64,000 nucleotides of DNA from an uncultured Candidatus Saccharibacteria bacterium (GTDB taxonomy: Bacteria; Patescibacteriota; Minisyncoccia; Phycocordibacterales; CAYSCM01): contig CAYSCM010000003.1 in the NCBI GenBank assembly GCA_964429815.1, positions 29,297 through 93,296 on the forward strand, read 5' to 3'. The translations under genes and the position numbers were made by a program. Below, piece after piece: positions 1 through 64,000 of this stretch; position 1 is the stretch's first letter, and every line of letters starts with the position of its first letter. The notes under the pieces are model-generated. The model did not search any database. It saw nothing but the letters and a program-made list of their open reading frames with translations, and was not told where the DNA came from.

Positions 1-428
1 ACCATACTGCTACCCACCTCTTGCACCAGGCGCTACGTGATGTTTTGGGACACGGAGCTCTCCAAAAGGGAAGTAATATCACTCCTGAGCGGCTTCGGTT
101 TGACTTTGCCTATCCGCGGAAAATGACTGATGAGGAAAAAAGGAAAGTTGAGGATATCGTGAACGCTCGTATTGCTGAAGCACTTCCCGTTTCTTACGAG
201 GATATTCCGTTGGAAGAGGCACAAAAGCGAGGTGCGATCGGTCTTTTTGAAGAAAAGTACGCAGACAAGGTGCGGGTCTATAAAGTGGGCAAGTATTCGC
301 TTGAGTTTTGTGGGGGGCCGCATGTGACGAACACCGCGAAGCTTAGCGTCGACGGTAAAAGGTTTCGCATCGAGAAAGAGGAGGCGATATCCGCAGGAGT
401 GCGGCGTATCAGAGCTGTGTTTGCGTAA
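1..428 (+). CDS. alaS: alanyl-tRNA synthetase, C-terminal part (5'-truncated by window edge)
   Basis: The frame is open from the window start. Carries the AlaRS editing-core motifs (HQALRDVLGHG, FCGGPHV, ISAGVRRIRAVFA). No C-Ala domain follows. Confidence 0.75.
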   Translation, partial: HTATHLLHQALRDVLGHGALQKGSNITPERLRFDFAYPRKMTDEEKRKVEDIVNARIAEALPVSYEDIPLEEAQKRGAIGLFEEKYADKVRVYKVGKYSLEFCGGPHVTNTAKLSVDGKRFRIEKEEAISAGVRRIRAVFA

Positions 429-448
429 GTACAGGCTATACTTAGCGT

Positions 449-1654
449 ATGAGCTTGTTATCCCCGCTGCGAAAAGCTGTCAGTGGAGGTCCGGTCGCGC
501 TCCTTGAGATAGGGAGCGGCTCCGTTGGAGCTCTTTATTTCACGCGCGGGGATGACGCAAAACACGTTCCTAGGTCAGTTTTTTTCGCGAAGCGCTACCC
601 CATGCCGCTCCAAGAGAGCCTCGATTTTCGACGCTTCGCCAAGGCGATGGAGGATTCTCTCAACGCTGCGACCAAGGAACTCTCCGAAAGCCCCGCGATC
701 AAGAAAAATGGGCGTCCGCATGAAGTGCACGTCGTATTCGGCGCTCCCTGGTACCTGTCGCGCTCAAAAGTGACCTCGATGGGTCAACCACGTCCGTTTA
801 TGGTCACCGATTCCATGCTCGCCGCCGTCAATAAGGCAGCTGTCGACGACTTTTTAGCCTCCGGCGAGGTAACGACCGGGGAGCAAATCGAGCATGCACC
901 AAAGCTTGTTGAGCATATGCCGGTCCAAGTGCTTCTCAATGGATACCCCACTTCCCGGCCTGCAGGGAAAAGAGTCACGACGTTTTCGGTCGCGATGTTT
1001 GAAAGCGTCGTATCGTCGAGAGTATTTCAGACCGTCTCCACCGTCGTCTATCACGCGCTTGGGCGCACCCCCTTGTTCCACAGCGCGTCGCTTGCGTACT
1101 ACAAAACCATCGGGAGCATTTTCACGGAACCAGACAACTACCTTATTGCCACAGTCGAACAGGAGGTGACCGAGGTATCGCTTGTCGAGGGTGATGTCCT
1201 CCGCGAGACGGTATCTTCCCCCCTTGGTACCAATCATCTTTTGCGTGCGCTCACGACGGAGCGCAAGACTGTCCCGGAGGAGGCATTATCCTTGTACCTC
1301 CTAGCTACTTCGATGCAAGCTCGCTCAGGAGAGGATAAAACGCTTGAAGCGCATCTCGAAAAAGCTCGCGTTAAAGCACTCTCATCGTTCGCCCAAACAT
1401 GTAATACGCTTGCAAATCTGAAACCCTTGCCGTCGAAACTCTATCTCCTTGCCGAGCCGCAGTTCGGTGCCTGGTTCGCACAGGTGTTCGCGGACAGCAG
1501 CTGCGCACAGTACACCAGTCTCGGTGATCCGTTCCAGGTCGCGCTTTTGACGAAGGATGCCATTGCGAACGCGGTCGGCGCGGAGATAAACCAGTTTCCC
1601 GATGCGCAACTAGGACTTGAAGCGCTCTACGTATCCCGCTTTGGCGCTCAGTAA
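449..1654 (+). CDS. hypothetical protein, possible actin-fold (ASKHA) ATPase resembling FtsA/PilM
   Basis: 401-aa ORF. The N-terminal LLEIGSGSVGALYF resembles the phosphate-1 motif of FtsA/PilM/MreB-type ATPases. The rest has no recognisable motifs. Confidence 0.35.
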   Translation: MSLLSPLRKAVSGGPVALLEIGSGSVGALYFTRGDDAKHVPRSVFFAKRYPMPLQESLDFRRFAKAMEDSLNAATKELSESPAIKKNGRPHEVHVVFGAPWYLSRSKVTSMGQPRPFMVTDSMLAAVNKAAVDDFLASGEVTTGEQIEHAPKLVEHMPVQVLLNGYPTSRPAGKRVTTFSVAMFESVVSSRVFQTVSTVVYHALGRTPLFHSASLAYYKTIGSIFTEPDNYLIATVEQEVTEVSLVEGDVLRETVSSPLGTNHLLRALTTERKTVPEEALSLYLLATSMQARSGEDKTLEAHLEKARVKALSSFAQTCNTLANLKPLPSKLYLLAEPQFGAWFAQVFADSSCAQYTSLGDPFQVALLTKDAIANAVGAEINQFPDAQLGLEALYVSRFGAQ

Positions 1655-1698
1655 TCCACTTTTTATCTTGGATTACGGCGCGCTATACTGAAACTGAT

Positions 1699-3018
1699 AT
1701 GGCAAAACAGCCGCTTCAGGATATTCTTCCGCCACGCCGACCACGCAAACGCCTCGCCGAGGTAATGCAGACAATAAGTCCCCAGACATCGCGTCCCTCG
1801 CCACCCCCACCCCCTCTGCCTCCCCCTCCAACGCAGCCGCAATCAATGGTGTCGGAAACACCACCCGAACCTTCTGGACGTCGATTGGTGCCGAGCGCGA
1901 GGGTGCTCATTGCAGGGGGGGTCGGTCTTATTCTTCTCACCATTGGATTTTCTTACCTATTCGGTGGTGCGACGGTGCGCGTCTCTGCCCACGTACAGCC
2001 GGTCAAAGTGGACGCACTTTCGTTTCAGGCAAAGAAGGACGCCTCCACTGGCCTCTCGTTCGAGGTCGAGACTGTCGAGCGTAGCGGAGTCCGACAGGTC
2101 ACGCCGACGGGGGAGGAAAATGTTTCGATAAAAGCGACCGGGCGTATCGTCGTATACAACAATTATGCAACCCAAGGTCAGCGCCTTATCAAAAATACGC
2201 GATTCGAGACCGGAAGCGGCCTCATCTACCGCATCCCGGAATCGATAACGGTCCCAGGAATCCACAAAGAGAATGGGCAAAACGTTCCTGGATCCATCGA
2301 GGTGGACGTCGTAGCCGATCAGCCCGGGGATCCGTATAACATCAGTCTCTCGGATTTCACTATCCCCGGTTTTAAAGGAACCCCGCAGTACGACAAGTTT
2401 TATGCACGCAGCAAAACACCCATAACTGGAGGCTTTGTCGGCAAACGCCCTGTCGTTCCAACAGCCGACCTTGTTCAAATACGCACCGATCTCGAGAAGG
2501 AATTGCGAGGACAGCTTCTGACGCAAGCTCAGGCGCAAAAACCTGCAGGATATCTTCTCTACGAAAGCGGAGCGACCGCCACTTTTGAGCTTCAGCCAAC
2601 GACGGAAAGCAACGGTCAGGCAGTGGTGACCGAAAAAGCGACCCTTTCGGCAATCATTCTTCGAGCCGAAGCGTTCGCTTCGACGATCGCGAAGGGAACC
2701 GTCGCCCAGTATGAGGACGAGCCGGTCCAGCTTGACAATCCAGAAGAGCTGACGGTCGTTTTTACCGGAGCAAGCAATCCCCTGGAGGAGTCTGTCACAG
2801 GCACCATCTCGGGCAATGCACGTATTCGCTACACCTTTGACCCAGCGGCCCTCCAACAAAATCTCGCCGGGAAAGCCAAAGAGGCCCTCAGCACGTTGGT
2901 AAACAACGACCCAGCCTTTAAAAATGCGATATCCAAGGCGACTGTCTCCATACGGCCTTTTTGGAAGGGACACTTTCCGGTAAACCCCAAGGGCATACGC
3001 ATCATAACGGAGAATTAG
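1699..3018 (+). CDS. hypothetical bitopic membrane protein (Pro-rich cytoplasmic N-terminus, one TM, large extracytoplasmic domain)
   Basis: 439 aa. N-terminal motif DILPPRRPRK, a PPPPPLPPPP tract, one hydrophobic helix (VLIAGGVGLILLTIGFSYLFGG), then about 340 aa of beta-rich sequence. Confidence 0.5.
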   Translation: MAKQPLQDILPPRRPRKRLAEVMQTISPQTSRPSPPPPPLPPPPTQPQSMVSETPPEPSGRRLVPSARVLIAGGVGLILLTIGFSYLFGGATVRVSAHVQPVKVDALSFQAKKDASTGLSFEVETVERSGVRQVTPTGEENVSIKATGRIVVYNNYATQGQRLIKNTRFETGSGLIYRIPESITVPGIHKENGQNVPGSIEVDVVADQPGDPYNISLSDFTIPGFKGTPQYDKFYARSKTPITGGFVGKRPVVPTADLVQIRTDLEKELRGQLLTQAQAQKPAGYLLYESGATATFELQPTTESNGQAVVTEKATLSAIILRAEAFASTIAKGTVAQYEDEPVQLDNPEELTVVFTGASNPLEESVTGTISGNARIRYTFDPAALQQNLAGKAKEALSTLVNNDPAFKNAISKATVSIRPFWKGHFPVNPKGIRIITEN

Positions 3019-3065: not shown

Positions 3066-3302
3066 GTGGTCTATTCGCAAAGGATGGACGCTGATAAGAA
3101 GTTACAGCCTGAAGTAGAAGGGCAGGTCGTTGAGGCTCTGCCCAATACGCTGTTTCGGGTGCAACTCCAGGGCGGTGAGCTTCTGTTGGCCTATCTTGCG
3201 GGGAAGATGCGTATGAACCGTATACGTGTCCTCGTCGGCGATAAAGTGACGGTGCTTCTCGACCCCTACGGGGGGAAGGGACGTATTGTCCGTCGCCATT
3301 AA
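3066..3302 (+). CDS. infA: translation initiation factor IF-1
   Basis: [19 protein letters not shown]...GKMR...GDKV...GRIV matches the IF-1 S1 fold. The true start may be the ATG at 3084. Confidence 0.9.
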
Positions 3303-3358
3303 CCCGTCGCGTTTATACATAAAACTGCCCTGCGGTTTTCGTGCTGTTTGGAAAACAT

Positions 3359-11404: not shown

Positions 11405-12157
11405 ATGACCACACTTCTTTTCCATCACGAGGGCCTCCTCGATGAGGGGGTCCTTCGGGCCGCCGCCGTGCGGCAAGTCGAAGGCTCACGTCTCATCAGT
11501 GCAGCTGCAACCGGCGATCGGAAGGCGATAAGCGCTCTTCACCGCGGCTTCTGGCCGTTCGTGAAGGGTTTCGAAGAAGTGATCGACAAGCGCGGCCGGG
11601 AACTCATTCAGCAGCGCAAGTCGCTCGCCGAGAAGTTTGGACACGAGGTGACACGCGATACGCTTTCTTCGCTCGCGCGTGCCCTCCGGCACATGAAAGC
11701 CGAGGAAGGCTCTCACGCTGCGACCTGGGCTGCCGATGCTCAGAGTCTCAAGATCAAAGACCTCAGCGGTCCGATCGCCGAGGGCGTTCAAGAGCTTCTC
11801 GACAGCGCCTCCAATTCGCAGCTATGGCGCCACTACTCCGTACTTGCGGGGACGGAGTATACCGCGGAAGGACTTTCCGCGCGCCTCTCCCGTCGCTCGC
11901 CTGCATTCGTGTCGGTTTTTCCAATCAAAAAGTGGCTGTGGGGTGAGGTCCACCTCTCTCCGCACGACCACGGGCCCTCGCATCGGCAGATCGATGAAGA
12001 TCTGGCGCGTGCACTGTGTGGTTTTGGCAACGATGAGGAGAGGAAATCGAAACTCGAGGGTGCTATCCTCGAGACCATCACCCTCTTCGGAAAGGCCGCA
12101 GACGACGTCTACGACCTGTATCTGAAGCCTCGGCCGCGCCTGCGGCTTGCTGCTTGA
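11405..12157 (+). CDS. hypothetical protein, possibly a heme-oxygenase-like all-alpha fold (TenA/PqqC/CADD-like)
   Basis: 250 aa, predicted helical. Spaced Glu/His residues (HRGFWPFVKGFEEV, EEGSHAATW). The family call is tentative. Confidence 0.35.
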   Translation: MTTLLFHHEGLLDEGVLRAAAVRQVEGSRLISAAATGDRKAISALHRGFWPFVKGFEEVIDKRGRELIQQRKSLAEKFGHEVTRDTLSSLARALRHMKAEEGSHAATWAADAQSLKIKDLSGPIAEGVQELLDSASNSQLWRHYSVLAGTEYTAEGLSARLSRRSPAFVSVFPIKKWLWGEVHLSPHDHGPSHRQIDEDLARALCGFGNDEERKSKLEGAILETITLFGKAADDVYDLYLKPRPRLRLAA

Positions 12158-17160: not shown

Positions 17161-17730
17161 ATGACACTCGAGGCGAAAATCGAGGCTGTGTTGTTTTTCA
17201 AGGGGGGACCCGTTTCTCGGGTTTTTTTGGCAAGACAACTTTCCACAGACCTATCGGCGATAGATGCCGCAGTTGAGGCCCTTGTAGCTTCTCTGAAAGG
17301 ACGCGGGATATTGCTTGTGCGCAAGGACGACGAAATCGAACTGCGCACTGCCCCGGGAGCGAGCGCCCTCATCGAAAAAATACAGCGAGAGGAGCTTGAG
17401 CGTGATTTGTCGAAAGCTTCTCTCGAGACGCTCTCTATCATCCTTTACCGCAGCCCCATCACGCGAGCCGATATTGATTTTATTCGCGGCGTTAATTCGA
17501 CGTTCATTCTCCGTTCGCTCCTGGTGCGCGGTCTTATTGAGCGTGTATCCGATCCTAAGGATGAGCGAAAATTTTTATACCGTCCGACCTTTGACCTTCT
17601 CTCACATCTCGGCATATCGAGCGTACAGGACCTCCCTGAGTATCAAGCCGTCATATCTGAGTTCGAAAATTTCGAGGCAAAAGCTCAGGCGCTTAATTCT
17701 GCACACGATGAGAGTGAAGAAGATAAATAA
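17161..17730 (+). CDS. scpB: segregation and condensation protein B
   Basis: Tandem winged-helix domains (IEAVLFFKGGPVS, ETLSIILYRSPITRADID). The start was placed at the ATG after the TTG ORF start at 17143. Confidence 0.85.
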   Translation: MTLEAKIEAVLFFKGGPVSRVFLARQLSTDLSAIDAAVEALVASLKGRGILLVRKDDEIELRTAPGASALIEKIQREELERDLSKASLETLSIILYRSPITRADIDFIRGVNSTFILRSLLVRGLIERVSDPKDERKFLYRPTFDLLSHLGISSVQDLPEYQAVISEFENFEAKAQALNSAHDESEEDK

Positions 17731-18658
17731 TGTATCGATAGTGACCGTCTCGTTTGTCGTCCTAGGTATGCTCCTGTTTAGTTTCGCATTCATTCATGTG
17801 CGGATAACAATGCCCGCCCGTCCGGCTCATTCCGATGGTGCATCGGTTACAGCTCCGCAAGCAACCTCCACATCGATGCTCGGTAATGTCGATATAGATG
17901 CAAAGGCGGCGTACGTTTTCGATCTCCAAAGCGGGATGGTTTTGTACGCAAAGAATGAAACGGCCCAATTGCCCCTCGCATCGCTCACCAAGCTCATGAG
18001 CTCCTTGGTCGTTTCTTCGATGCTCTCACCACAGGCGCTCACATCGATTTCTCACCAAAATGTTTCCTTAGAAGGAGGATACGGCCTTAAGGAAGGAGAA
18101 GCCTATCGCGTCCGCGATCTTCTTTCGTACTCCCTCACTGCTTCATCGAATAGCGCCATGCAGGCGCTCGCCAACGCGGCGCTTTCGCAGCAGCATGACG
18201 CTCAAATGTTTATCGATCTTATGAACGCGCGCGCGAAGAAATTAGGCCTCGCGCAGACATACTTTATGAATGAAACCGGCCTCGACCCTAGCGCGACCGT
18301 GAGCGGCGGCTATGGTTCAGCCCGTGATATCGCTCTTCTTCTCTCGGATATTCTGCTTCACAACGGAGCGCTCCTTGAGTCGACGACCAAGGAAACAGTG
18401 ACTATCGAGGGCAATGCCGCCGGAACCCCGGTCTCGCACACCGCAAAAAACACTGATGAGGTGCTCGGCGCTATCCCAGGGCTTATCGGGGGGAAGACCG
18501 GCTATACCGATCTTGCGGGCGGCAACCTCGCTGTTGCGTTCGATGTTGGGCTTCATCATCCGGTGGTAGCAGTGGTGCTAGGCTCGTCCCAAGATGGGCG
18601 TTTTACGGACATGCTTAAAATAGTTCAGTCGATCAACGCCTACATTTCTCACAATTAG
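17708..18658 (+). CDS. D-alanyl-D-alanine carboxypeptidase (peptidase S11 / PBP5-like)
   Basis: SxxK (ASLTK), SxN (SSNSA) and KTG (GGKTGYT) motifs, with an N-terminal signal/anchor. The real gene is the 3' two-thirds of the 17315 ORF; the start overlaps the end of scpB. Confidence 0.75.
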   Translation: MRVKKINNVSIVTVSFVVLGMLLFSFAFIHVRITMPARPAHSDGASVTAPQATSTSMLGNVDIDAKAAYVFDLQSGMVLYAKNETAQLPLASLTKLMSSLVVSSMLSPQALTSISHQNVSLEGGYGLKEGEAYRVRDLLSYSLTASSNSAMQALANAALSQQHDAQMFIDLMNARAKKLGLAQTYFMNETGLDPSATVSGGYGSARDIALLLSDILLHNGALLESTTKETVTIEGNAAGTPVSHTAKNTDEVLGAIPGLIGGKTGYTDLAGGNLAVAFDVGLHHPVVAVVLGSSQDGRFTDMLKIVQSINAYISHN

Positions 18659-18660
18659 CC

Positions 18661-19749
18661 ATGTTCCAACTCGCCGATATCGTCAAAGTCATTACCCCGA
18701 CCGCACTTGCGTTCTTTATCGGAGTAAGCCTCACGCCGCTTCTTACGCACTATCTCTATAAGCACAAGGCGTGGAAAAAAAAGGCAGGAAAGCTTGCGAT
18801 CGACGGCACGGTCGCAGCCGTCTTCAGTGAGCTTCACAAGGACAAGGAGGTCGGGACGCCGCGAATGGGCGGCATTGTCGTGTGGGGAAGTGCCGTCATC
18901 GTCATTGTCGGTTTCTATCTTCTAGCTATCGCGTTTCCTTCGACAAGTTTTACCAAACTGAGTTTTCTGAGCCGAAACCAGACGTGGCTGCCGCTTTTCA
19001 GCCTTATTTCCGGAGCCCTTGTTGGTTTTATCGACGATCTTCTCGAAATACGAGGGAGTCGTGACTATCGCGCTGGAGGGCTTTCGTTGCGCAAACGGCT
19101 TCTCATTGTGGGTGCGATTTCTGCCGGGGTCGGCTGGTGGCTCTACATTAAACTCGGCATTGCGACGCTAGCGCTCCCATTCCTTCCGGACGTGCACGTC
19201 GGCGCTTTTATAGTCCCTGTGTACATGTTCGTCGCCCTTTCGATTTACAGCAGTGGAATAATAGACGGCATCGATGGACTTTCCGCTGGAGTTTTTGCGG
19301 CTATCTTTTCCGCCTATGCCGGTATCGCGTTTTTCAATAATCAGCTTGATCTTGCGGCTTTTTCGGCCATGTTGGTCGGATCACTTCTCGCTTTCTTGTG
19401 GTTTAACATTCCGCCTGCGCGCTTCTATATGACCGAAACCGGCATGATGGCTCTTACGCTTACCCTTGCGACCATTGCGTTCCTCACGGACACCCTTGGC
19501 GGCGGGGTGGGGGTAGCAGTCCTTCCCATCATCGGATTTCCCCTCGTCGTCACCGTGTTGTCGGTGGTACTTCAAATGGCATCGAAAAAGTTTCGCGGAA
19601 AAAAACTATTCCTCGTTTCTCCCATTCACCATCACTTTGAGGCCATCGGCTGGCCTTCCCACAAGGTGACCATGCGTTATTGGGTCATCTCCATTATTTT
19701 CGCGTTTCTCGGGATGGTGCTCTCTCTTATTGGCAAGCCGCTCCTATGA
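18661..19749 (+). CDS. mraY: phospho-N-acetylmuramoyl-pentapeptide transferase
   Basis: KEVGTPRMGGIV and IDGIDGLSAGV motifs; a polytopic membrane protein. Confidence 0.92.
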   Translation: MFQLADIVKVITPTALAFFIGVSLTPLLTHYLYKHKAWKKKAGKLAIDGTVAAVFSELHKDKEVGTPRMGGIVVWGSAVIVIVGFYLLAIAFPSTSFTKLSFLSRNQTWLPLFSLISGALVGFIDDLLEIRGSRDYRAGGLSLRKRLLIVGAISAGVGWWLYIKLGIATLALPFLPDVHVGAFIVPVYMFVALSIYSSGIIDGIDGLSAGVFAAIFSAYAGIAFFNNQLDLAAFSAMLVGSLLAFLWFNIPPARFYMTETGMMALTLTLATIAFLTDTLGGGVGVAVLPIIGFPLVVTVLSVVLQMASKKFRGKKLFLVSPIHHHFEAIGWPSHKVTMRYWVISIIFAFLGMVLSLIGKPLL

Positions 19750-20840
19750 CGAAGCGTCTCGACACGACGTTTCTTCTTACAACGATCGTCCTTCTTACCG
19801 GGGGGTTTTTTATTTTTATGTCCGCTTCGCTAGGTCTTCTGACACGCGATGGCGCAAGCTTTTCTTCCGTCGCCGCGAGCCAAATCCTGCTCGGTGCAGG
19901 CGTGGGCGCGCTGGGGATGTTCGGGCTTTCTCGCATTCATTACAAGAATTTTAGGCGATTTGCGCTGCCGTTTTTCATCGTTGCCTGTCTAATCTCTGTT
20001 CTCGTGTTCGTGCCGGGGATCGGTGCAAAATTCGGCGGTGCACACTCCTGGATACTCCTTGGCCCCATCTCGTTCCAACCGGCAGAACTTTTAAAGTTTG
20101 CCTACATTGTCGTTCTTTCCGCGTTCCTTGCTAATCCCGACAGAGGCCAGCGAGAGCAGTTTTATAAATTCGCGATCTTCAGCGGTATAACCCTAGTCGC
20201 AATACTCCTCCTTGCCCTTGAGCCAAACATCGGGACCGCCATGGTGTTGGCGCTCGCGGGAGTTTCGGTACTTTTTGCATCGGGTGCCAGCATGCGCTAC
20301 ATCGCGCTTATGGGAATCACCGTCATTACTATTCTCATTGTGTACGTTTCTATATTTTCCCATGCGTTTGCGCGCATAAAGACCTACCTTGACCCATCCG
20401 CCGATCCTCAAGGTTCCGGATATCAGATACAGCAGGCGCTTATCGCCGTTGGTTCCGGAGAGCTCTTTGGTCGAGGATTCGGACAGAGCTTGCAAAAATT
20501 CAACCACCTGCCGGAGCCGATAGGGGACTCTATATTCGCGGTATTCGCGGAAGAATTTGGATTTGTCGGCTCTTTGGTACTTTTGGTGCTGTTTGTTCTT
20601 TTTGCACTTCGCGGTTTTCGCATTGCGGCACGCGCTCCCGATCGCTTTGGGGCCCTTCTGGTGGTTGGATTCATTTCTCTTATACTCGTGCAATCGCTTA
20701 CCAATATTGCGGCGGTGCTTGGGGTGCTTCCACTCACCGGGCTTCCGCTTATTTTCATAAGCCACGGCGGTTCGGCGCTCCTCTTCGCGCTTCTTGAGGT
20801 AGGTGTTATACTCTCAGTTTCCCGTTTTGCCAAGGTTTAA
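19746..20840 (+). CDS. ftsW: SEDS-family peptidoglycan glycosyltransferase (FtsW/RodA)
   Basis: ATGA overlap with mraY. 10-TM SEDS topology with a PEPIGDSIFAVFAEEFGF motif. Confidence 0.85.
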   Translation: MTKRLDTTFLLTTIVLLTGGFFIFMSASLGLLTRDGASFSSVAASQILLGAGVGALGMFGLSRIHYKNFRRFALPFFIVACLISVLVFVPGIGAKFGGAHSWILLGPISFQPAELLKFAYIVVLSAFLANPDRGQREQFYKFAIFSGITLVAILLLALEPNIGTAMVLALAGVSVLFASGASMRYIALMGITVITILIVYVSIFSHAFARIKTYLDPSADPQGSGYQIQQALIAVGSGELFGRGFGQSLQKFNHLPEPIGDSIFAVFAEEFGFVGSLVLLVLFVLFALRGFRIAARAPDRFGALLVVGFISLILVQSLTNIAAVLGVLPLTGLPLIFISHGGSALLFALLEVGVILSVSRFAKV

Positions 20841-20875
20841 GCCCTGAAACCCGCAATTGGTGCTATACTTTTTGC

Positions 20876-22006
20876 ATGAAGATAGTGCTTACGGGCGGAG
20901 GAACGGGGGGGCACTTTTATCCTCTGATAGCGGTCGCTGAGGAGATAAATCGCATCGCCACGGAGCGGAAAATCCTCCCTCCACAGCTTTACTACATCGC
21001 CCCAACTCCCTACGATGAGCGGCTCCTGTTCGAGAACAACATAGAATTTCGTCACTCGCCGGCAGGGAAACTGCGCCGCTACTTCTCTTTCCTCAACGTC
21101 ATCGACCTCGTGAAGACTCTCATCGGGGTCAGTAAAGCTCTCCTGCAGCTTTTTTCCATATTTCCGGACGTCATTTTCAGCAAAGGCGGCTACAGCAGTT
21201 TTCCCACAGTGACCGCTGGACATATACTTGGCATTCCTGTTGTCGTTCACGAGTCCGATGCAAAGCCAGGTCGAGCCAACCTTCTGGCCGGAAAACGTGC
21301 ACAGTCAATTGCCCTCTCTTATCCCGAAGCCGCAGACTATTTTCCGAAAGACAAAATTGCATTGGTTGGCAATCCGGTGCGCAGAGCTTTGCGCACACCG
21401 CTCACCGAAGGGGCCCGAGAATTTTTAAAACTTGAGGAACAAGCGCCCGTCATACTCATTCTTGGAGGCTCGCAGGGAGCATCGCGAATAAACGACATCA
21501 TTTTAGAAGCCTTGCCGGAGCTGGTACAAAGATTTCAGGTGATTCATCAGACAGGTGAGGCTCTCTTTGAATCTGTGTCGCAAACAGCTTCCGTCATTCT
21601 TGATAAAAACTCTAATGCGTCCCGGTATCATTTGTTTGCGTACCTTAACGAACTAGCATTGCGTATGAGCGGGGGTGTCGCGTCGCTCATCATCACCCGC
21701 GCCGGTTCCGGGAGCCTTTTCGAGATAGCGGGATGGGGGAAGCCCTCCATCGTTATTCCCATCCCAGAGGAGGTGAGCCATGATCAGCGTAGCAACGCGT
21801 ATTCATACGCCAGGAACGGAGCGGCGACCGTGATCGAAGAGAAAAACCTGGCACCCCACCTTCTTCTTTCCGAAATAAACCGCATCATGGATGATGCGAA
21901 ACTCCAGAAGGACATGGGTGAAGCCGCTCTTGCGTTTGCACGCCCTGACGCAGCGACCAAGATTGCTGAAGAACTTATACGCATTGCGCTTTTGCATGAG
22001 AGATAA
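20876..22006 (+). CDS. murG: UDP-GlcNAc:undecaprenyl-PP-MurNAc-pentapeptide GlcNAc transferase
   Basis: MKIVLTGGGTGGHFYPLIAVAEEI at the N-terminus; GT28 fold. Confidence 0.92.
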   Translation: MKIVLTGGGTGGHFYPLIAVAEEINRIATERKILPPQLYYIAPTPYDERLLFENNIEFRHSPAGKLRRYFSFLNVIDLVKTLIGVSKALLQLFSIFPDVIFSKGGYSSFPTVTAGHILGIPVVVHESDAKPGRANLLAGKRAQSIALSYPEAADYFPKDKIALVGNPVRRALRTPLTEGAREFLKLEEQAPVILILGGSQGASRINDIILEALPELVQRFQVIHQTGEALFESVSQTASVILDKNSNASRYHLFAYLNELALRMSGGVASLIITRAGSGSLFEIAGWGKPSIVIPIPEEVSHDQRSNAYSYARNGAATVIEEKNLAPHLLLSEINRIMDDAKLQKDMGEAALAFARPDAATKIAEELIRIALLHER

Positions 22007-39306: not shown

Positions 39307-40608
39307 CTAGCGTTTCAGCCACTCCTCTTCTTGGCGTACCAGGACCTCTTTTGGGTCCATGTCGGGTGCCAAGAGAGCAGCGGTCACCTTTTCCAGGCGC
39401 GGCGATTGAGAACCTTTTATAAGGACAATGTCGTTTGGCTCGATTTTGCTAGGAATTTTCTCGATAGCTTCACGCCATGACGGAAATTCGACGACATTCT
39501 CCGGCAAAAATCCCGCAGCGATTGCTGCACGCCCAACGTCACGGGCGCGCACGCCGATGACACAGAGGACATCGACGATTTTTGCCGCTCTTCGTCCAAG
39601 CTCCTCATGTGCTGAAACGGAGTGCGGGCCGAGCTCCATCATATCCCCCAAAATCGCGATCTTTCTCCCGCGTCCTATCTTGATTTCTTTAAGGGTTTGG
39701 AGTGCAACCTCCGCAGCGATCGGGGAGGAATTATACGTATCATCGATGAGCGTCGAGCTGTTCCGCCCAGGAAGGAGCCTCATGCGCCCCGGCGGGGTCA
39801 CTTGCCTTCCGATATCCTGCGCGATATTGACGAGATTTATGCCAACCGCTATGCCCGTTGCGGCCGCAGCAAGCGCGGCTGAAATGTGGCTTTGCCCCAG
39901 CGCCCCGCGCAGCTCGCAAGGTACGCTGTTGCCGCGATATTCGATGCGAAAACCCATGCCGACGGGCTCTCCGTCCTCATAGAGAATGGATTCATGCGAG
40001 CCGCGCACGTGCGCTGCCTCCGACATTCCGTACGTCACGACACTTCCCCGGAAGAGCGCCGCGCTCCCAAGCACGGCCTCATCATCCGCATTGAGGATGA
40101 GGGTGCCCTCGGGAAAGAGCGATTTGACGAGATGCTGTTTTTCGGCCGCGACTGCGTCGGGAGTCTTAAAGAACTCTACATGCACGGGCACGTCGGGAAA
40201 ACGCGTTATTACGACCACTTCGGTGCGCATCCAGCGCGCGATGGCACTTATGTCGCCGGGGCGGTCAGCGCCGACTTCGAGGACGAGCCACTTCGGATAA
40301 TGATTTGGCAAAAGGATGAGCCCAAGGCCCTCAGCGAGGACCCGCAGCCAACGCAAGAAGTCTCTCCAGGCATTTGCCGCGCCCAGGATGGTGAGCGGAA
40401 TGCCTATCTCACTGTTAAAGCTCTTCTCGCTTTTGCGCGTATGGAGATGGCGCGATATGACCGAGTAGATGGCGTCTTTTGTCGAAGTCTTTCCGACGCT
40501 CCCGGTGACAGCGATGATGCGCGGCCTATATTTGCGCAGAACCGCACGCGCTTCAAGCGCGAGAAGAGAAACTAGTACGCCTCGTATAAATTTTCGAAAA
40601 GAGTCCAT
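39307..40608 (-). CDS. murF: UDP-MurNAc-tripeptide--D-Ala-D-Ala ligase
   Basis: RIIAVTGSVGKTSTK (P-loop), DTYNSSP, ILGDMMELG motifs. Confidence 0.88.
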   Translation of the reverse strand: MDSFRKFIRGVLVSLLALEARAVLRKYRPRIIAVTGSVGKTSTKDAIYSVISRHLHTRKSEKSFNSEIGIPLTILGAANAWRDFLRWLRVLAEGLGLILLPNHYPKWLVLEVGADRPGDISAIARWMRTEVVVITRFPDVPVHVEFFKTPDAVAAEKQHLVKSLFPEGTLILNADDEAVLGSAALFRGSVVTYGMSEAAHVRGSHESILYEDGEPVGMGFRIEYRGNSVPCELRGALGQSHISAALAAAATGIAVGINLVNIAQDIGRQVTPPGRMRLLPGRNSSTLIDDTYNSSPIAAEVALQTLKEIKIGRGRKIAILGDMMELGPHSVSAHEELGRRAAKIVDVLCVIGVRARDVGRAAIAAGFLPENVVEFPSWREAIEKIPSKIEPNDIVLIKGSQSPRLEKVTAALLAPDMDPKEVLVRQEEEWLKR

Positions 40609-40611
40609 GGG

Positions 40612-42321
40612 CTAACGATCGGGAGGAATAGCGTAATAGTTAATGAGAAAGTCTGCAATATTCTTAAACGGAAGTGTGAGGGTCTGGGACGCGTAGTTTA
40701 CCCCCTGCGGCTCGAGGGTGAAGAGAAAAACGAGGAATTTTGCATCATAGGCCGGGAAGTAGCCGAAGAACGAGTGGAGGTAGCGATCGTCGTAGTAGCC
40801 TCCACCCGGCTTTGCGATTTGGGCGGTACCGGTCTTAGCCGCTATGGAGTAGTGCTCCTCTTTCACCCTTCCCTGAAGGAGCGACGTATCGACGACCGTG
40901 ACAAGCATGCGGGTAATTTCGTCGGCCGTGTCCTCTTTTATGACCTGCTCGCCTCCCGGAGGGCTCACGGGGTCGACGAGGCCGCTTCGGTAGCGTATCT
41001 CGGTCGCAACATGGGGAGAGGGGAGGCGGCCATGATTGGCGAGGGTCGCGAGCGCACGTGTAATCGCGATCGGCGTGACCGCAATTCCCTGCCCGAAGGA
41101 AGCTGTCGCGTACTCGATATCACGCGGACTCTCTAGGTTCCCGACGATGCCTGCCGCTTCACTCGGGAGATCGATGCCGGTCTCCTCACCGATGCCGAAG
41201 TGCTTCAAGTAATCGGCGAAACGTTTATTCCCGAGCCGCGAAACTACGTATGCCGCACCGGTATTGAGGGACTGATTGAGGACGTCTTGCATCGAGACCG
41301 TGCCGCGGCCCTTTCCGTCGAAGTTGCAGAACGTCTTTTTATCGAGCGTGTCGCACCCTTTATCGAGATACGTGGTTTGTGCCGTCACGACGCCGGCATC
41401 AATTCCGGATGCCATGGTGAGCGGTTTTACGATAGAGCCCATTTCAAAGACCTTGTCGACGAGCGGATTATCGAGGAGGGAGATGTTGCCGACGCTGCCG
41501 TAGTGATTCGGGTCGAACGTCGGATATACTCCCATCGCCACAACGGTACCTGTTTTGGGTTCGATGACGATGCCCCCGGTCTCTGTGCTCTGCCAAGTAT
41601 CGTTCACAGACCGAAGCGTATCTTCAAGTTTCTTCTCGACCGTCGGTTCGATACCGGTCACAATGTCTCCCTCCCCGCGCCCATTGGTTCCTCCAAGTTT
41701 TCGAACGTCCGAGAAAAGCTCGCTGAAAAAACTATCGTAGCCGCCTCCTTTGCGCGCCAAGGTGTCATCGTAATAGCGCTCGAGGCCGTATCGGCCAGAA
41801 AAGGTCATCCCATCATCGTTATACCCGACGAAGCCGACGACACTGCTACCCAATTCCCCCGCTGGGTAATAGCGCCACTTCTCGCGGTATATGGAAACCC
41901 CGGGAAGGTTGAGTGCATCGATCGCGGCGCCATTATCAGCGGAGATCTGGTGAGCCACCTCCTCGTAGGTGTCGTTTTGTTTTTGTGCGCGTGCGAAGAA
42001 TTTTTCCCGATCGAGAGGGATGATCGCGGAGAGTCTTTCGTACACCCCGGCAGGATCGCTCACTTTCTGTGGATTGAGGGAGAGGAGAAAACCGCTCCCG
42101 AGAGTAGCCGCGGCGACCTCGGTGCCATCGTTTGCCGTAAAGTAAATGCTCCCCCGATCGAACAGCGTTTCGGAGGGATTTATGTACTGCCGGTCTTCCT
42201 TGGCTGCATAAACCTCTCCTTGCATGATCTGGAGATAGTAGAGGCGCGCGAGGAGGACCAGCACAAATGCGCACAGCAGAATGCTTATGAAACGCACGCG
42301 CCGCATGAATGCGCCTCTCAT
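40612..42321 (-). CDS. ftsI: penicillin-binding protein, class B transpeptidase (FtsI/PBP3)
   Basis: N-terminal TM; SxxK (GSIVKPLT), SxN (SLNTG) and KTG (KTGTAQ) motifs. Sits in the mraZ-rsmH-ftsL-ftsI-murF context. Confidence 0.88.
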   Translation of the reverse strand: MRGAFMRRVRFISILLCAFVLVLLARLYYLQIMQGEVYAAKEDRQYINPSETLFDRGSIYFTANDGTEVAAATLGSGFLLSLNPQKVSDPAGVYERLSAIIPLDREKFFARAQKQNDTYEEVAHQISADNGAAIDALNLPGVSIYREKWRYYPAGELGSSVVGFVGYNDDGMTFSGRYGLERYYDDTLARKGGGYDSFFSELFSDVRKLGGTNGRGEGDIVTGIEPTVEKKLEDTLRSVNDTWQSTETGGIVIEPKTGTVVAMGVYPTFDPNHYGSVGNISLLDNPLVDKVFEMGSIVKPLTMASGIDAGVVTAQTTYLDKGCDTLDKKTFCNFDGKGRGTVSMQDVLNQSLNTGAAYVVSRLGNKRFADYLKHFGIGEETGIDLPSEAAGIVGNLESPRDIEYATASFGQGIAVTPIAITRALATLANHGRLPSPHVATEIRYRSGLVDPVSPPGGEQVIKEDTADEITRMLVTVVDTSLLQGRVKEEHYSIAAKTGTAQIAKPGGGYYDDRYLHSFFGYFPAYDAKFLVFLFTLEPQGVNYASQTLTLPFKNIADFLINYYAIPPDR

Positions 42322-42344
42322 CTATTTCACTTTACCCTGAAACG

Positions 42345-42662
42345 CTACAAACCGCGCGGCAACGGAAGGGCGCTCGTGAGGAGAGTTTTCCGCGAAGCAA
42401 AGGCGCTTTCCTTCACTGCGACGAAACCGCTCGCAAACGCGACGTCCTGCGTGAGAGCGCTCATTTTCGCTAGATACTCCCCCTCGAATGCTCCCGCGCT
42501 GGCGGTCGCTCTGGCTATGGTTTGCTCTGTTTCTTTCTGGAGGACGACGTGGACTATGGAAAAGGACACGAAATACATGTAGGAGGCTGCAAGGACCCCT
42601 ATAAGCATAAAAAGCATTATGGTGAGCTGTCTTTTGAGGTTGTAGGCTTGTACTGCTGTCAT
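42345..42662 (-). CDS. ftsL: cell division protein FtsL-like (single TM)
   Basis: 105 aa, one TM helix. Located between rsmH and ftsI, overlapping rsmH by 4 nt. Confidence 0.6.
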   Translation of the reverse strand: MTAVQAYNLKRQLTIMLFMLIGVLAASYMYFVSFSIVHVVLQKETEQTIARATASAGAFEGEYLAKMSALTQDVAFASGFVAVKESAFASRKTLLTSALPLPRGL

Positions 42663-43552
42663 GATTTTTCAAAGATTCTAAGTTTGCTACTGCGAGAGCG
42701 GGTGTTCTCTATACGTTCTGTCCCGGTCGGGGTCAGTGGCTTTTTCGTAAGAACCGTCCCCTTCCCTTCCCTCGCCCAATTCCGGAAGGTGTTCTTAACG
42801 ATGCGGTCTTCGGCACTATGGAAAGAGATAAACGCCATCCGTCCATGCCCTGCGAGAGCCTCATAACTTTTTCGCAGTGCTTCCTTAAGAGAGCCGAGCT
42901 CGTCATTTACTGCGATGCGCAAGGCCTGAAACGTTTTGGTTGCGGGGTGAATTTTTCCATGCCGCTTGAGGACGCTTTCTATCACGGCAACCAAATCTGC
43001 CGTCGTCTTAAGTGACCCTCCCTGGCGAGCCTTCACGAGCGCATGCGCAATCTTTCGTGCCGCGCGTTCCTCTCCATAGCCGAAGAGAACGTCCGCGATG
43101 TGCTCCTCTTCCCATGTGTTGACGATATCGCGTGCCGTGAGTGCCTGTGCCTCAGGCGTATCGTCGAAGGTCATGAGGAGCGGTTCGTCTTTTTTGAAGC
43201 TGAATCCCCGTCCGGAATTCTCAAGTTGGTCGGATGAGAGTCCGAGGTCGAAATACGCTTTCGTGAGTTTTTCCACGCCGACCTCTGCCAGCACTCGATC
43301 GAGATTGCGAAAATTTTCCTTTCGCAGCTCGACCCGGCACTCTGCGCCCTGAAGGCGCTTCCGCGTGCGCTCAAGCGCGCTCTGGTCGAGATCGACCCCG
43401 ATAAAGACACCCTTTTCCCCAAGCCGCTTCACTACCGCCTGCGCGTGACCGCCACCATTAACCGTCCCGTCAAAGACGATGTCTTCGGGAACGATCGCAA
43501 GACCTTCTATGAGCTCCTGTAAAAGAACACCTCGATGCACTCCTTCGGACAT
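42659..43552 (-). CDS. rsmH: 16S rRNA (cytosine1402-N4)-methyltransferase
   Basis: HRGVLLQELIEGL...FDGTVNGGGHAQAVV...DLGLSSDQLE is the RsmH/MraW signature. Confidence 0.92.
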   Translation of the reverse strand: MSEGVHRGVLLQELIEGLAIVPEDIVFDGTVNGGGHAQAVVKRLGEKGVFIGVDLDQSALERTRKRLQGAECRVELRKENFRNLDRVLAEVGVEKLTKAYFDLGLSSDQLENSGRGFSFKKDEPLLMTFDDTPEAQALTARDIVNTWEEEHIADVLFGYGEERAARKIAHALVKARQGGSLKTTADLVAVIESVLKRHGKIHPATKTFQALRIAVNDELGSLKEALRKSYEALAGHGRMAFISFHSAEDRIVKNTFRNWAREGKGTVLTKKPLTPTGTERIENTRSRSSKLRIFEKS

Positions 43553-43556
43553 GGCC

Positions 43557-43991
43557 TCATAACACGCCTATCTCTCCAAGCTTCTCCGCCATCTGGTCCG
43601 CCTGACCCTCGATGCGCTTCTTGTAGGTGCGCCATTTCCCTTCGTCCCAGATCTCGACCCGGGCCTGGAGGCCTGCCAGCACAACCCTTTCTTTGAGCGA
43701 GGCGAACTCTTTCTGAAAATCCGGAATAAGAATGCGACCCGCGCTGTCTACCTCGACCTCGACCGCTCCGGAGAGCATGAAGCGATTGAAGCCGCGCGTA
43801 TCGGACTTGGTGAACGACAGCTCCCCGAGCTTTTCGGAGACCTTCGACCATTCTTTCGTCGAATACATGAAGAGACAGTTGTCGAGACCTCTGGTGATGA
43901 CCACTTTGCGCCCCAACTCTTGGCGGAATCTCGCGGGAAGCGAAAGGCGCTTCTTGGGGTCGAGCGTGTGGGTGTATTCGCCGATAAGCAT
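43557..43991 (-). CDS. mraZ: transcriptional regulator MraZ
   Basis: Internal ATG giving MLIGEYTHTLDPKKRLSLPARFR; two tandem MraZ repeats; 144 aa. Confidence 0.9.
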   Translation of the reverse strand: MLIGEYTHTLDPKKRLSLPARFRQELGRKVVITRGLDNCLFMYSTKEWSKVSEKLGELSFTKSDTRGFNRFMLSGAVEVEVDSAGRILIPDFQKEFASLKERVVLAGLQARVEIWDEGKWRTYKKRIEGQADQMAEKLGEIGVL

Positions 43992-44035
43992 CCGTGCCGT
44001 GGCGAGAGCCGGTGGGAAGCGGTCGTTTCCCCGTT

Positions 44036-44102
44036 TCCCACTTTCTCCCACTACAGTGAAATTATATAACACTCTATCCCACCGCTAGGGACTTATCCCC
44101 AC
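44036..44102 (-). promoter_or_regulatory. array of GTGGGA direct repeats (putative MraZ boxes) flanking a TATAAT -10
   Basis: On the mraZ strand: GTGGGGA, GTGGGA, [TTATATAAT], GTGGGAG, GTGGGA. Two boxes are 10 nt apart. They lie 45-110 nt upstream of the mraZ ATG. Confidence 0.45.
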
Positions 44103-44161: not shown

Positions 44162-45739
44162 CTATGCGCTCACTTCTTTGAGTCGCTCGATAAGAAAATC
44201 CCTTGGCAAAACGGATAGAAACCATCCCGCTTTAGGACCACTTTCTTTTCCGAGGAATGCGAGATAGAGGGCGCTAAAGAGCTCCTTTGGCTCGATTGTG
44301 AGTTTTGACTTTAATTCATGCATATACTCATGTAACTTTTGTCCATCGAGTGCTTCAGTTTGTACGATATATCGTACAATTTCTGCAAGAGCTTCCTTTT
44401 GCTTCGGTGAGAGATTTTTTGCGGCTTCAGACACCGCAACTTTTTGGAGCTCGTACCGATACTTCTCGGGCGCATGTTCGGTAAGCCAGCGGCGCGCATA
44501 GGTCTCTCGCTCCTGCGCTTCCGCCTTGTCTTCGGCGGAAAGTGCAGAGCCCTTCATGGCGGCCACTTCCTCTAAAAGTTTGAGGTGTGGCATCTGCACG
44601 ATAAATGAGACGATCGAAAATCGCGGCCGATAGGCGTTGGGAATACTTTCACGCTCCTTTTCTGGGTGGATGAGCTCAAATAGCCGTGCAAAATCGTCCT
44701 TCTCGCCAGCAAAATATTTCTCTGCAATGGTGTCATGAAGATCGTAGAGCGTCGGGATGGTTTCGCCGTCGGGTTCGAAGTTCACAGCTTGTTTAATATC
44801 CTTCCCGAGAAGCGCTAGGCGAAAAATTTTAGGCGGAACAAGTTCTGCTATTTCTTTTGCAGATGAGCCGGCTCCTTTCGAGGAAGACATTTTCCTCCCG
44901 CCCACGAGGAAAAATTCATAGGAAAATTCGTAGGGTGCATCGAGGCCAAAAACTTCTTTCGCTATTGCTTTGGCAACATCATGCGCGCCACCCTTCCCCA
45001 TATGGTCTTTTCCCGCTCCCTCAACATCAACACCAAGCACCTTCCACTTCGCAGCCCATTCAACCTTAAAGGGAAATTTCGCAACTCCTCCAAAAGGGGC
45101 TATCGTGCCATCGTGGCCGCACCCTTTTGCCCAGGTGACTAGATCGCTCTTACAGCGATACGCTACTTTTTTACCGTTCCAGGCATACACCTCGGTTGTT
45201 CCCACACGTCCGCACTTTTCACAAATGACGGAGAGTGGGTACCATTCATCTCCCTTTTTTGAGCCAGAAACTTCATGATAGATGCGGCGAATGTCGGGAG
45301 CTCTATCGAGTGCCGTTTGAATGAGCTCATCCATTTTTCCGGAAAGGTAAAGCTCACTCACGTTATAAAATGTCGGGCTAAATCCTGCCGTTCGTATCAC
45401 CCCCTTAAACTCGTTGGCAAAGTATTCCGCATAATTTTTTGCCTTGCCGTCCGGAGATGGAATGCGCAGTAGTGGCATGCCCATGTATTTTTTAAATTCG
45501 GCTGGCAAATAGACCGGGAAGCCATCCATGGGGTCCATGTCATTGAATTCGTATTGAAAATTGTTGCGGATACCCCTCTCCCTAAGGACTTCACTCACGG
45601 TACCGTGAATGGCAACGCCCCGCATGGAACCGACATGAACGCGCCCGGAGGGAGTCTTTTCGTCACGAATGAGGAGCTCTCCGCCGCGTGGTCGTACCGA
45701 TTTGACGATGTCTTCCGTTATTCTGTCGGCCCAAAACAT
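44162..45739 (-). CDS. lysK: lysyl-tRNA synthetase, class I (archaeal-type)
   Basis: 525 aa. HIGH-like HVGSMRG, KMSKS as KMSSSKG, and a C-terminal alpha-helical anticodon-binding domain. The architecture matches LysRS-I, not the class II LysS. Confidence 0.8.
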   Translation of the reverse strand: MFWADRITEDIVKSVRPRGGELLIRDEKTPSGRVHVGSMRGVAIHGTVSEVLRERGIRNNFQYEFNDMDPMDGFPVYLPAEFKKYMGMPLLRIPSPDGKAKNYAEYFANEFKGVIRTAGFSPTFYNVSELYLSGKMDELIQTALDRAPDIRRIYHEVSGSKKGDEWYPLSVICEKCGRVGTTEVYAWNGKKVAYRCKSDLVTWAKGCGHDGTIAPFGGVAKFPFKVEWAAKWKVLGVDVEGAGKDHMGKGGAHDVAKAIAKEVFGLDAPYEFSYEFFLVGGRKMSSSKGAGSSAKEIAELVPPKIFRLALLGKDIKQAVNFEPDGETIPTLYDLHDTIAEKYFAGEKDDFARLFELIHPEKERESIPNAYRPRFSIVSFIVQMPHLKLLEEVAAMKGSALSAEDKAEAQERETYARRWLTEHAPEKYRYELQKVAVSEAAKNLSPKQKEALAEIVRYIVQTEALDGQKLHEYMHELKSKLTIEPKELFSALYLAFLGKESGPKAGWFLSVLPRDFLIERLKEVSA

Positions 45740-48501: not shown

Positions 48502-48791
48502 GGCGGGGCGTTGCGAAAGAGTATCCGCTTGCGCACGACACGGGCGGCGGTGAGCGCAAGCAGGAATCCAAACGTAAAGAAATATTGGAAACCGCCGTAC
48601 GCGGGCACGGGTGCGGCACCGAACGCGTCGATCACGATGCCCCAAAACACCACCTCGATGGGACGCAGCGATACGATGAAGAGAAGCCCGATGAGCGCGG
48701 TAATCCACCACGGGAAATAGATAAGCGATAAGAGCATCGCGGCATTGAAAAGAAGACGTATCGTAGCGCTACTGCGAAGCCACATAGACAT
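48498..48791 (-). CDS. mreD: rod shape-determining protein MreD (short form)
   Basis: Hydrophobic 3-TM protein between mreC and mrdA. The start is inferred at the internal Met so that it does not run deep into mreC. Confidence 0.5.
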   Translation of the reverse strand: MSMWLRSSATIRLLFNAAMLLSLIYFPWWITALIGLLFIVSLRPIEVVFWGIVIDAFGAAPVPAYGGFQYFFTFGFLLALTAARVVRKRILFRNAPP

Positions 48792-50611: not shown

Positions 50612-50621
50612 AGCCTCCGCA

Positions 50622-63925: not shown

Positions 63926-63990
63926 GTGGCCACATTCCGGTGTAGCTCAATGGTAGAGCAGCTCCCTGTTAAGGAGTTGGTTGTAGGTTC
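63926..63990 (+). tRNA. tRNA-Asn (anticodon GTT), 3' end cut by the window edge
   Basis: Acceptor TCCGGTG, D-arm GCTC-AATGGTA-GAGC, anticodon stem GCTCC/GGAGT with loop CTGTTAA, T-arm GTAGG-TTCGAGT-CCTAC. A TTGCAA-17 nt-TAAGAAT promoter-like element lies upstream. Confidence 0.8.
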
Positions 63991-64000
63991 GAGTCCTACC

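Follow-up and report, generated by a model that had tools for sequence, protein, structure and literature searches.

Two adjacent genes, here called A and B, were analysed near the left end of a stretch of 64,000 nucleotides of contig CAYSCM010000003.1 from an uncultured bacterium; this whole stretch is referred to as the window, and all coordinates are given in it. An earlier reading of the same DNA from its letters alone (the sequence-only reading) had described a divergent actin-fold ATPase encoded at 449-1654, followed by a membrane protein encoded at 1699-3018. Both open reading frames (ORFs) exist as described there and, as judged from sequence comparison, A and B are real genes, neither of them a chance ORF. 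A simple consensus scan of the spacer between them (1655..1698) gave no promoter or terminator match. The features of the pair are as follows (aa, amino acids; nt, nucleotides; pLDDT, predicted local distance difference test).

449..1654, plus strand: gene A, 401 aa, soluble cytoplasmic FtsA/PilM-type actin-fold (ASKHA) protein of a family without a curated model
500..529, plus strand: phosphate-1 loop of A, residues 18-27, LLEIGSGSVG (column frequencies, 228 family members)
746..1012, plus strand: predicted 1C (SHS2-type) insertion domain of A, residues about 100-188, strand-helix-strand-strand
1142..1186, plus strand: phosphate-2 loop of A, residues 232-246 (HMMER alignment to FtsA 'VDIGGGTMD', hhalign, column frequencies)
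1655..1698, no strand: A-B spacer, 44 nt, between the stop of A and the start of B
1699..3018, plus strand: gene B, 439 aa, predicted N-in single-pass (bitopic) membrane protein (AlphaFold, charge pattern, homologues)
1699..1755, plus strand: conserved cytoplasmic N-terminus of B, residues 1-19 (MAKQPLQDILPPRRPRKRL), putative docking site for A
1756..1896, plus strand: variable low-complexity cytoplasmic linker of B, residues 20-66 (alignment, pLDDT)
1897..1959, plus strand: transmembrane helix of B, residues 67-87 (AlphaFold helix, hydrophobicity maximum)
1960..3015, plus strand: external domain of B, residues 88-439, with a predicted barrel at about residues 138-252 (window 2110-2454)

Proteins A and B

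Protein A of the window has no match in Pfam, NCBIfam or PHROGs, and none in PADLOC at E <= 1. The sequence-only reading had called it unrecognisable apart from one motif, which agrees with the Pfam and NCBIfam results. A word-indexed homology search returned 3 and then 13 relatives, and the identity of relatives to the window protein was typically 18-27%. The small number of relatives is caused by the fast evolution of the A family. The genes upstream of B homologues are homologues of A (BLASTP, E = 5e-38 and 3e-8), and a local hidden Markov model of A recovered 76 homologues among the genes at this position. An exhaustive profile search with A yielded 3612 clusters (50% identity) at E <= 1e-3 and 1905 at E <= 1e-30.

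We compared a profile of 39 family members with the sequences of the PDB. The matches were FtsA (E = 1e-4), PilM (E = 3e-4), GppA/Ppx and EutJ, all of which are ASKHA proteins. With hhalign, the A profile was aligned to E. coli FtsA at a probability of 92%, and no signal was obtained with E. coli HofM (probability 0.2%). The FtsA models of Pfam (PF14450) and TIGR01174 matched 20 and 18 of the 39 members weakly, with best E values of 1.5e-6 and 3.6e-6, respectively; the PilM models PF11104 and TIGR01175 matched 1/39 and 3/39, and Ppx/GppA matched 14/39, again weakly. The curated thresholds of the four FtsA and PilM models were reached by no A match.

The AlphaFold model of A has a pLDDT of 87.1 and a predicted template modelling score (pTM) of 0.87. 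In this model, a strand-helix-strand-strand insertion of the 1C/SHS2 type (residues 102-188) is found in place of subdomain 1B within the actin fold. The 1C/SHS2 subdomain sets FtsA and PilM apart from other actin-like proteins, and the fold test for this type found both the ASKHA fold and 1C in the model. Based on the predicted structure and the profile matches, A is an actin-fold protein of the FtsA/PilM type, and its closest matches in sequence and structure are FtsA, slightly ahead of PilM. The actin-like nature proposed for A in the sequence-only reading is thus upheld by the model, and the non-ASKHA fold that would have contradicted it was not predicted.

Residue conservation was calculated over 228 members of the A family. 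The phosphate-1 consensus is h-h-D-I-G-S-G-S-V-G, with Asp in 91% of the members. In the window protein (residues 18-31, LLEIGSGSVGALYF) the loop is present with Glu (E20) at the Asp position, and the FtsA/PilM-like phosphate-1 motif noticed earlier is therefore confirmed. At phosphate 2, the family has D-(I/V)-(T/S)-G-E-x-T-(E/D) as its consensus; the corresponding residues in the window protein are T-V-E-Q-E-V-T-E, with Asp changed to Thr (T235), Gly changed to Gln, and E239, T241 and E242 kept. At the adenosine loop (positions 335-340) the family has no conserved Gly, unlike FtsA and PilM. Because this loop is absent and both phosphate loops are changed in the window protein, nucleotide binding by A is uncertain, and A is at most a putative ATPase.

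The most conserved motifs specific to the family lie in or beside 1C, namely P100-W101 (98% W) and N164-G165-Y166 (94/81/98%). Further conserved residues are G260, which is invariant, R49 and D385, and all of them are present in the window protein. The tail past the last core helix has a median length of 10.5 residues and never exceeds 25, and an FtsA-style linker with an amphipathic membrane-targeting helix was found at the C-terminus of none of the 228 members. Thus, A has no membrane-targeting tail of its own.

Homologues of B are numerous (more than 1000 matches), and every named one is annotated as 'hypothetical'. Scanned with a pattern, species-representative genomes (one per species) yielded at least 510 B loci. 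The matching loci and relatives include Kaiserbacteria, Campbellbacteria, Taylorbacteria, Zambryskibacteria and Wolfebacteria, and by them the window is assigned to the Parcubacteria/Paceibacteria within the Patescibacteria. In the AlphaFold model of B (pLDDT 82.8), the first 64 residues are disordered and are followed by a helix (67-87) and a beta-rich domain; the pLDDT is below 50 over residues 1-19 and 42-56 over the linker (20-66). The median charge in the family is +6 before the membrane helix and 0 after it, and this positive-inside pattern supports an N-in topology. The short cytoplasmic N-terminus, poly-Pro tract, single transmembrane helix and large external domain that the sequence-only reading had listed were all recovered.

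The N-terminus of B (MAKQPLQDILPPRRPRK) carries a peptide with the family consensus M-x-K-x-x-phi-Q-D-I-V-P-P-x-K/R-R-S-I-R, where the logo shows E at the x before K/R. In an anchored logo of 171 distinct sequences, the conservation was D 96%, I 78%, P 79%, P 71% and R 70%; in an unanchored MAFFT alignment of 21 sequences, D8 was invariant and I9 and R18 were conserved in at least 90%. The public gene call on the source contig begins B at the internal Met23 (417 aa instead of 439) and drops this conserved peptide. According to the family alignment, the true start of B is 1699. Gene callers can therefore cut the N-terminal peptide of B and hide the feature that is most likely to matter for function.

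The linker after the peptide could not be aligned among the 21 sequences, showing no conservation and many gaps, and the peptide before it is conserved. Across the family, the median first residue of the membrane helix is 62 (range 22-111, 171 sequences). In the window protein the linker contains a near-pure proline run, PSPPPPPLPPPPT (residues 33-45, window 1795-1833); in most relatives it is charged, rich in Arg, Lys and Glu, and of similar length. Thus, a linker seems to be retained throughout, with little constraint on its composition.

The external domain of B is strongly conserved. The nearly invariant motifs QRLIKNTRFE, VPGSIE and FTIPGFKG lie on the predicted beta-barrel, which is followed by a long helix and then by alpha/beta domains. 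A Foldseek comparison of the B model with viral models returned baseplate-J proteins at a probability of 1.0, with identities of 10-18% and global TM-scores of about 0.19, which are low because the domain orientations differ. The fold test found that the barrel and adjoining domains of B are shared with baseplate J and the GlxA barrel. At the sequence level, the GlxA barrel model PF21110 gave 17.1 bits for the window protein, under the cutoff of 27, and matched 21/21 aligned members weakly; PF04865 (Baseplate J) matched 1/21 (E = 0.054). The external domain of B, as modelled, thus has a baseplate-J-like architecture. Apart from the PF21110 score under the cutoff, the window protein B had no match in Pfam, NCBIfam, PHROGs or the PADLOC defence models (E <= 1), and no SPOR or POTRA-type domain was found for B. 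We also considered B as a prophage remnant and rejected this, given its membrane anchor, its housekeeping locus without phage neighbours and the missing PHROG match.

Gene order around the pair

The pair lies between two conserved neighbours, which are given here as context only.

21..428, plus strand: 3' end of alaS (alanyl-tRNA synthetase), upstream of A (ORF translation)
3066..3302, plus strand: infA (translation initiation factor IF-1), first gene of the rpsM-rpsK-rpsD-rpoA-rplQ block (ORF translation)

The window copy of alaS is truncated, and A starts 20 nt past its stop. Downstream of B the order is infA, rpsM, rpsK, rpsD, rpoA, rplQ, rplM, rpsI, grpE, dnaK and dnaJ. At the infA site (plus strand, 3066-3302), the public calls instead have a minus-strand ORF of 72 aa (3102-3320).

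Gene A was found directly upstream of B on the same strand in 148 of the 152 Parcubacteria loci with enough upstream sequence. These consist of a first set of 82 loci fetched via B (A upstream in 75/79 with room) and a second set of 80 further metagenome loci (73/73 with room). For the first set, a median spacer of roughly 35 nt was read from the per-locus gaps, and for the second the median is 24 nt; in four loci of the first set the two genes overlap by 4-26 nt. When contexts were reached via A instead (P0002, P0134, P0131 and P0125), the next gene encoded 440-480 aa in 4/4; the GlxA mark was present on this gene in two of them, and in the other two it is a candidate B homologue of matching size. 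The homologues thus almost always co-occur with a bitopic partner, as the sequence-only reading would require. A-B seems to belong to the core genes of Parcubacteria/Paceibacteria.

The flanking genes are also conserved. Upstream of A, alaS was present in 67/72 loci with room (tRNA-synt_2c/tRNA_SAD genes in relatives), and infA was present downstream in about 62/74 (eIF-1a Pfam matches in relatives). The A-B pair is kept in five loci without alaS upstream (L026, L039, L076, L079 and L091) and in eleven without infA downstream; the latter are mostly close kin with unrelated genes next.

We then examined the division and pilus context of the pair. The window and the first 83 loci contain neither the FtsZ signature GGGTG[ST]G nor the Walker A motif of PilB/PilT, and no pilB, pilT, pilC, pilO or pilin gene occurs in the window or within 4 kb of the pair in those loci, where ftsZ adjacency and a dcw (division and cell wall) context were likewise not found. 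Searches of the window for FtsA, FtsZ and FtsQ with E. coli queries (phmmer) returned only the MreB proteins, and roughly 80 kb of the source contig contain no ftsA, ftsZ, ftsQ or pilB/pilT. The proximity of pilB/pilT or ftsZ, which the sequence-only reading had suggested looking for, was thus not observed. Genomes of the Candidate Phyla Radiation (CPR) have been reported to carry separate, canonical, co-localised pilM/N/O/B/C/T genes (PMC6744442), and groundwater Patescibacteria, in a set including Paceibacteria, have been reported to express annotated ftsA (PMC9938205). The latter report suggests a canonical FtsA separate from A. Together with the missing FtsZ and pil context, these reports argue for a separate module that is neither a pilus platform nor the canonical FtsA.

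Possible function and alternative explanations

The PilN peptide binds between subdomains 1A and 1C of PilM (2YCH, 5EOU), and FtsN-FtsA genetics indicate that the N-terminal cytoplasmic peptide of FtsN contacts subdomain 1C of FtsA. The A-B pair resembles PilM-PilN (2YCH, 5EOU, 3JC8) in that the gene following the actin-like gene encodes an N-in bitopic protein with a short conserved peptide at its extreme N-terminus; E. coli hofM-hofN has the same order, and HofN begins MNPPINFLPWR. PilM shares with A the FtsA-like fold including 1C, and neither protein carries its own membrane anchor. However, the PilN peptide is I-N-L-L-P and that of B is phi-Q-D-I-V-P-P-x-K/R-R, and the disordered linker of 30-60 residues before the helix of B is about 40 residues longer than that of PilN. 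PilN and PilO have a coiled coil and a ferredoxin-like fold in place of the baseplate-J/GlxA-like barrel predicted for B. A also differs from PilM in its neighbours, which are alaS, infA and ribosomal genes instead of pil genes, and in the lack of a Gly-rich adenosine loop.

FtsN is bitopic too, and its E. coli N-terminus, AQRDYVRRSQ, has an Asp and basic clusters as the B peptide does. In both proteins, a long disordered stretch is combined with a folded external domain. However, the disordered linker is periplasmic in FtsN and cytoplasmic in B, and FtsN has a SPOR domain. FtsA (7Q6D, 1E4F, 3WQT) differs from A in having a C-terminal amphipathic membrane-targeting helix, and A has no ftsZ neighbour. 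The peptide of B resembles 'INFLPWR' of PilN/HofN and 'RDYVRR' of FtsN in position and general character only, and in this sense the PilN-like N-terminus proposed in the sequence-only reading is supported; the motif is D-I-V-P-P, not INLLP.

In the GspL/EpsL proteins of type II secretion, a cytoplasmic actin-like domain is similarly coupled via one membrane helix to an external domain. The barrel fold predicted for B is like that of baseplate J and wedge proteins (Mu gp47, P1 BplA, T4 gp6 class) and of the GlxA barrel (4UNM, PF21110). However, B differs from the baseplate J proteins in being membrane-anchored and in lying in a housekeeping locus without phage genes. A partner with such an external domain has no counterpart in PilM-PilN or FtsA-FtsN. 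We found no description of the A-B pair in the literature searched.

In our best reading, A-B is a third, lineage-specific branch of FtsA/PilM-type proteins with a membrane partner. We give a probability of roughly 0.55 to the proposal that A and B form a membrane-spanning two-protein module specific to Parcubacteria/Paceibacteria, in which A is tethered by the B peptide. This tethering is inferred by analogy with the systems above. The B peptide would dock on A, either at 1C or in the groove between 1A and 1C, as PilN does on PilM and FtsN on FtsA. Such docking is proposed because the two architectures are complementary: A has no anchor, and the peptide is the sole conserved cytoplasmic feature of the bitopic B. 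The position of W101 and of the NGY hairpin in or beside 1C would fit the docking idea but is no proof of it. Docking may bring A to the membrane, and nucleotide-dependent self-association of A could then cluster or orient the external domains of B; alternatively, B could signal the state of the outside to A. The housekeeping location and the near-universal presence of the pair in the group weakly suggest a role at the cell envelope, perhaps in division, wall growth or surface organisation, rather than in a type IV pilus machine.

Several results weigh against this proposal. The A family as a whole lacks the Gly-rich adenosine loop, and residues of the nucleotide loops are altered in the window protein. 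The adjacency of alaS and A is nearly as conserved as that of A and B; gene order around the ribosomal cluster is conserved in these small genomes whatever the function, so that the adjacency of A and B says little by itself about whether they function together. Four loci (L052, L053, L056 and L075) have B immediately after alaS and no A inside about 4 kb, yet the N-terminal peptide of B is kept in them; A must then have been relocated in these genomes, or the peptide must serve a different partner. The mirror-tree partial correlation between A and B was 0.33 (p = 0.001), against 0.38 for A and RpsK and 0.50 for B and RpsK. This value is no larger than those of the RpsK controls and therefore shows nothing specific to the pair. 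In an unbiased scan by mutual information with average product correction (MI-APC), columns that define clades prevailed, and no residue of A emerged as a specific partner of the peptide.

A post hoc comparison of A residues 165-166 (window 941-946) with B residue 10 (window 1726-1728) showed that Asp or Glu at A165, in the NGY hairpin of 1C, is accompanied by Lys or Arg at B10 in 29/30 cases. In the B sub-clade with the peptide 'KWNLQDI(R/K)P' (loci L094-L173), the hairpin of A is often NDY or NEY. By parsimony, 6/7 acidic gains at A165 occurred on a B10-basic background, which spans 40-50% of the tree, and the pair ranks 19,533 of 159,328 in the MI-APC scan. This change, which may be charge-complementary, is significant post hoc only, has no support from the unbiased scan and is taken as no more than a weak hint of contact between the two proteins.

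A bolder extension of our proposal, which we regard as possible yet doubtful, is that A-B forms the core of a Parcubacteria-specific trans-envelope machine, combining the third FtsA/PilM branch with a domesticated baseplate-like domain. The external domain, perhaps assembled into rings in the manner of wedge proteins, would be organised from inside by the actin-like scaffold, and the scaffold would be recruited via the new docking peptide phi-Q-D-I-V-P-P. Such a machine could replace or supplement FtsA-based division anchoring, or organise the surface for host attachment.

Other explanations give the two proteins more familiar roles or separate them altogether. A could be the fast-evolving true FtsA of the lineage, acting with FtsZ, and B an FtsN-like or FtsQ/DivIB-like bitopic partner in the divisome. 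The strongest matches of A are indeed to FtsA, the B peptide recalls the N-terminus of E. coli FtsN with its Asp followed by a hydrophobic residue and its basic clusters, and the 64-kb window contains split dcw genes (mraZ, mraW, a penicillin-binding protein (PBP) gene, mraY, ftsW and murG) without ftsA or ftsZ. However, A has no C-terminal membrane-targeting helix and matches the curated FtsA models only under threshold, B has neither a SPOR nor a POTRA-type domain, and the pair never occurs by ftsZ or in a dcw context among the first 83 loci; the ftsA expression in groundwater Patescibacteria (PMC9938205) also suggests that a canonical FtsA exists separately. We therefore consider this explanation unlikely. 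A variant platform for type IV pili or competence, with A as PilM, B as PilN and the pilus ATPases encoded elsewhere, is quite improbable. The order of an actin-like gene and a bitopic gene with an N-terminal peptide does copy pilM-pilN, and K-W-N-L-Q-D-I-R-P in one B sub-clade recalls I-N-(L/F)-L-P. This option, raised in the sequence-only reading, has lost likelihood because no pil genes lie near the pair in the window and the first 83 loci and separate canonical clusters are reported in CPR genomes (PMC6744442). The predicted external fold and the longer linker of B and the absence of a HofM signal for the A profile point in the same direction.

Finally, A and B could be independent genes kept adjacent by a frozen gene order, A being a kinase- or phosphatase-type ASKHA enzyme and B an unrelated surface protein. 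The unrelated flanks alaS and infA are nearly as syntenic as A-B, the co-evolution results show nothing beyond phylogeny, 14 of the 39 A members match Ppx/GppA weakly, and four loci have B without A, all of which would fit this explanation. However, the 1C domain and the full-length match to FtsA/PilM are hallmarks of a scaffold and not of an enzyme, the architectures are complementary, the conserved disordered peptide of B has no other evident purpose, and A-B outlasts the loss of either flank. Independence of the two genes is thus improbable. A metabolic ASKHA enzyme was rejected as the principal reading of A, since the full-length match including 1C is specific to FtsA/PilM.

Hardly any member of the very large group of Parcubacteria/Paceibacteria has been cultured, and cell division and envelope building are poorly known in it. 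An FtsA/PilM-type protein with a dedicated membrane partner would provide a testable handle on their cell biology. If the proposal is true, the principle of a peptide-tethered actin-like scaffold, as in PilM-PilN and FtsA-FtsN, would gain a partner type with a phage-baseplate-like external domain.

Other genes in the window

The dcw cluster of the window is broken in two, with pieces of opposite orientation at 39307-44072 (minus strand) and 17315-22006 (plus strand) and about 17 kb between them. One piece consists of mraZ, mraW, a PBP gene and a Mur ligase gene, and the other of a D-Ala-D-Ala carboxypeptidase gene, mraY, ftsW/rodA and murG. Neither piece is followed by ftsQ, ftsA or ftsZ; after murG come gltX and a gene for an M23 peptidase with a coiled coil. 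Two MreB paralogues are encoded on the minus strand. One lies in a block of mreB, mreC, a 95-aa gene and PBP2 (46765-50791), and the other (56364-57377) stands alone beside an MlaC-like gene.

An ORF of 250 aa (11405-12157, plus strand) directly after dnaJ has no Pfam match and is called in the public assembly too. At the right end of the window, a tRNA gene (63936-64000, plus strand) is cut by the window boundary; it was matched by Rfam and not by ARAGORN. The lysyl-tRNA synthetase at 44162-45739 (minus strand) is of class I (Pfam tRNA-synt_1f, E = 1.6e-85), which is the archaeal type, class II being usual in bacteria. The MlaC-like gene beside the second MreB paralogue (55603-56283, minus strand) encodes a 226-aa protein with a Pfam MlaC match (E = 2.3e-9). 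MlaC takes part in periplasmic lipid transport and is typical of outer-membrane bacteria; its presence is unexpected in a CPR bacterium presumed to have no outer membrane.

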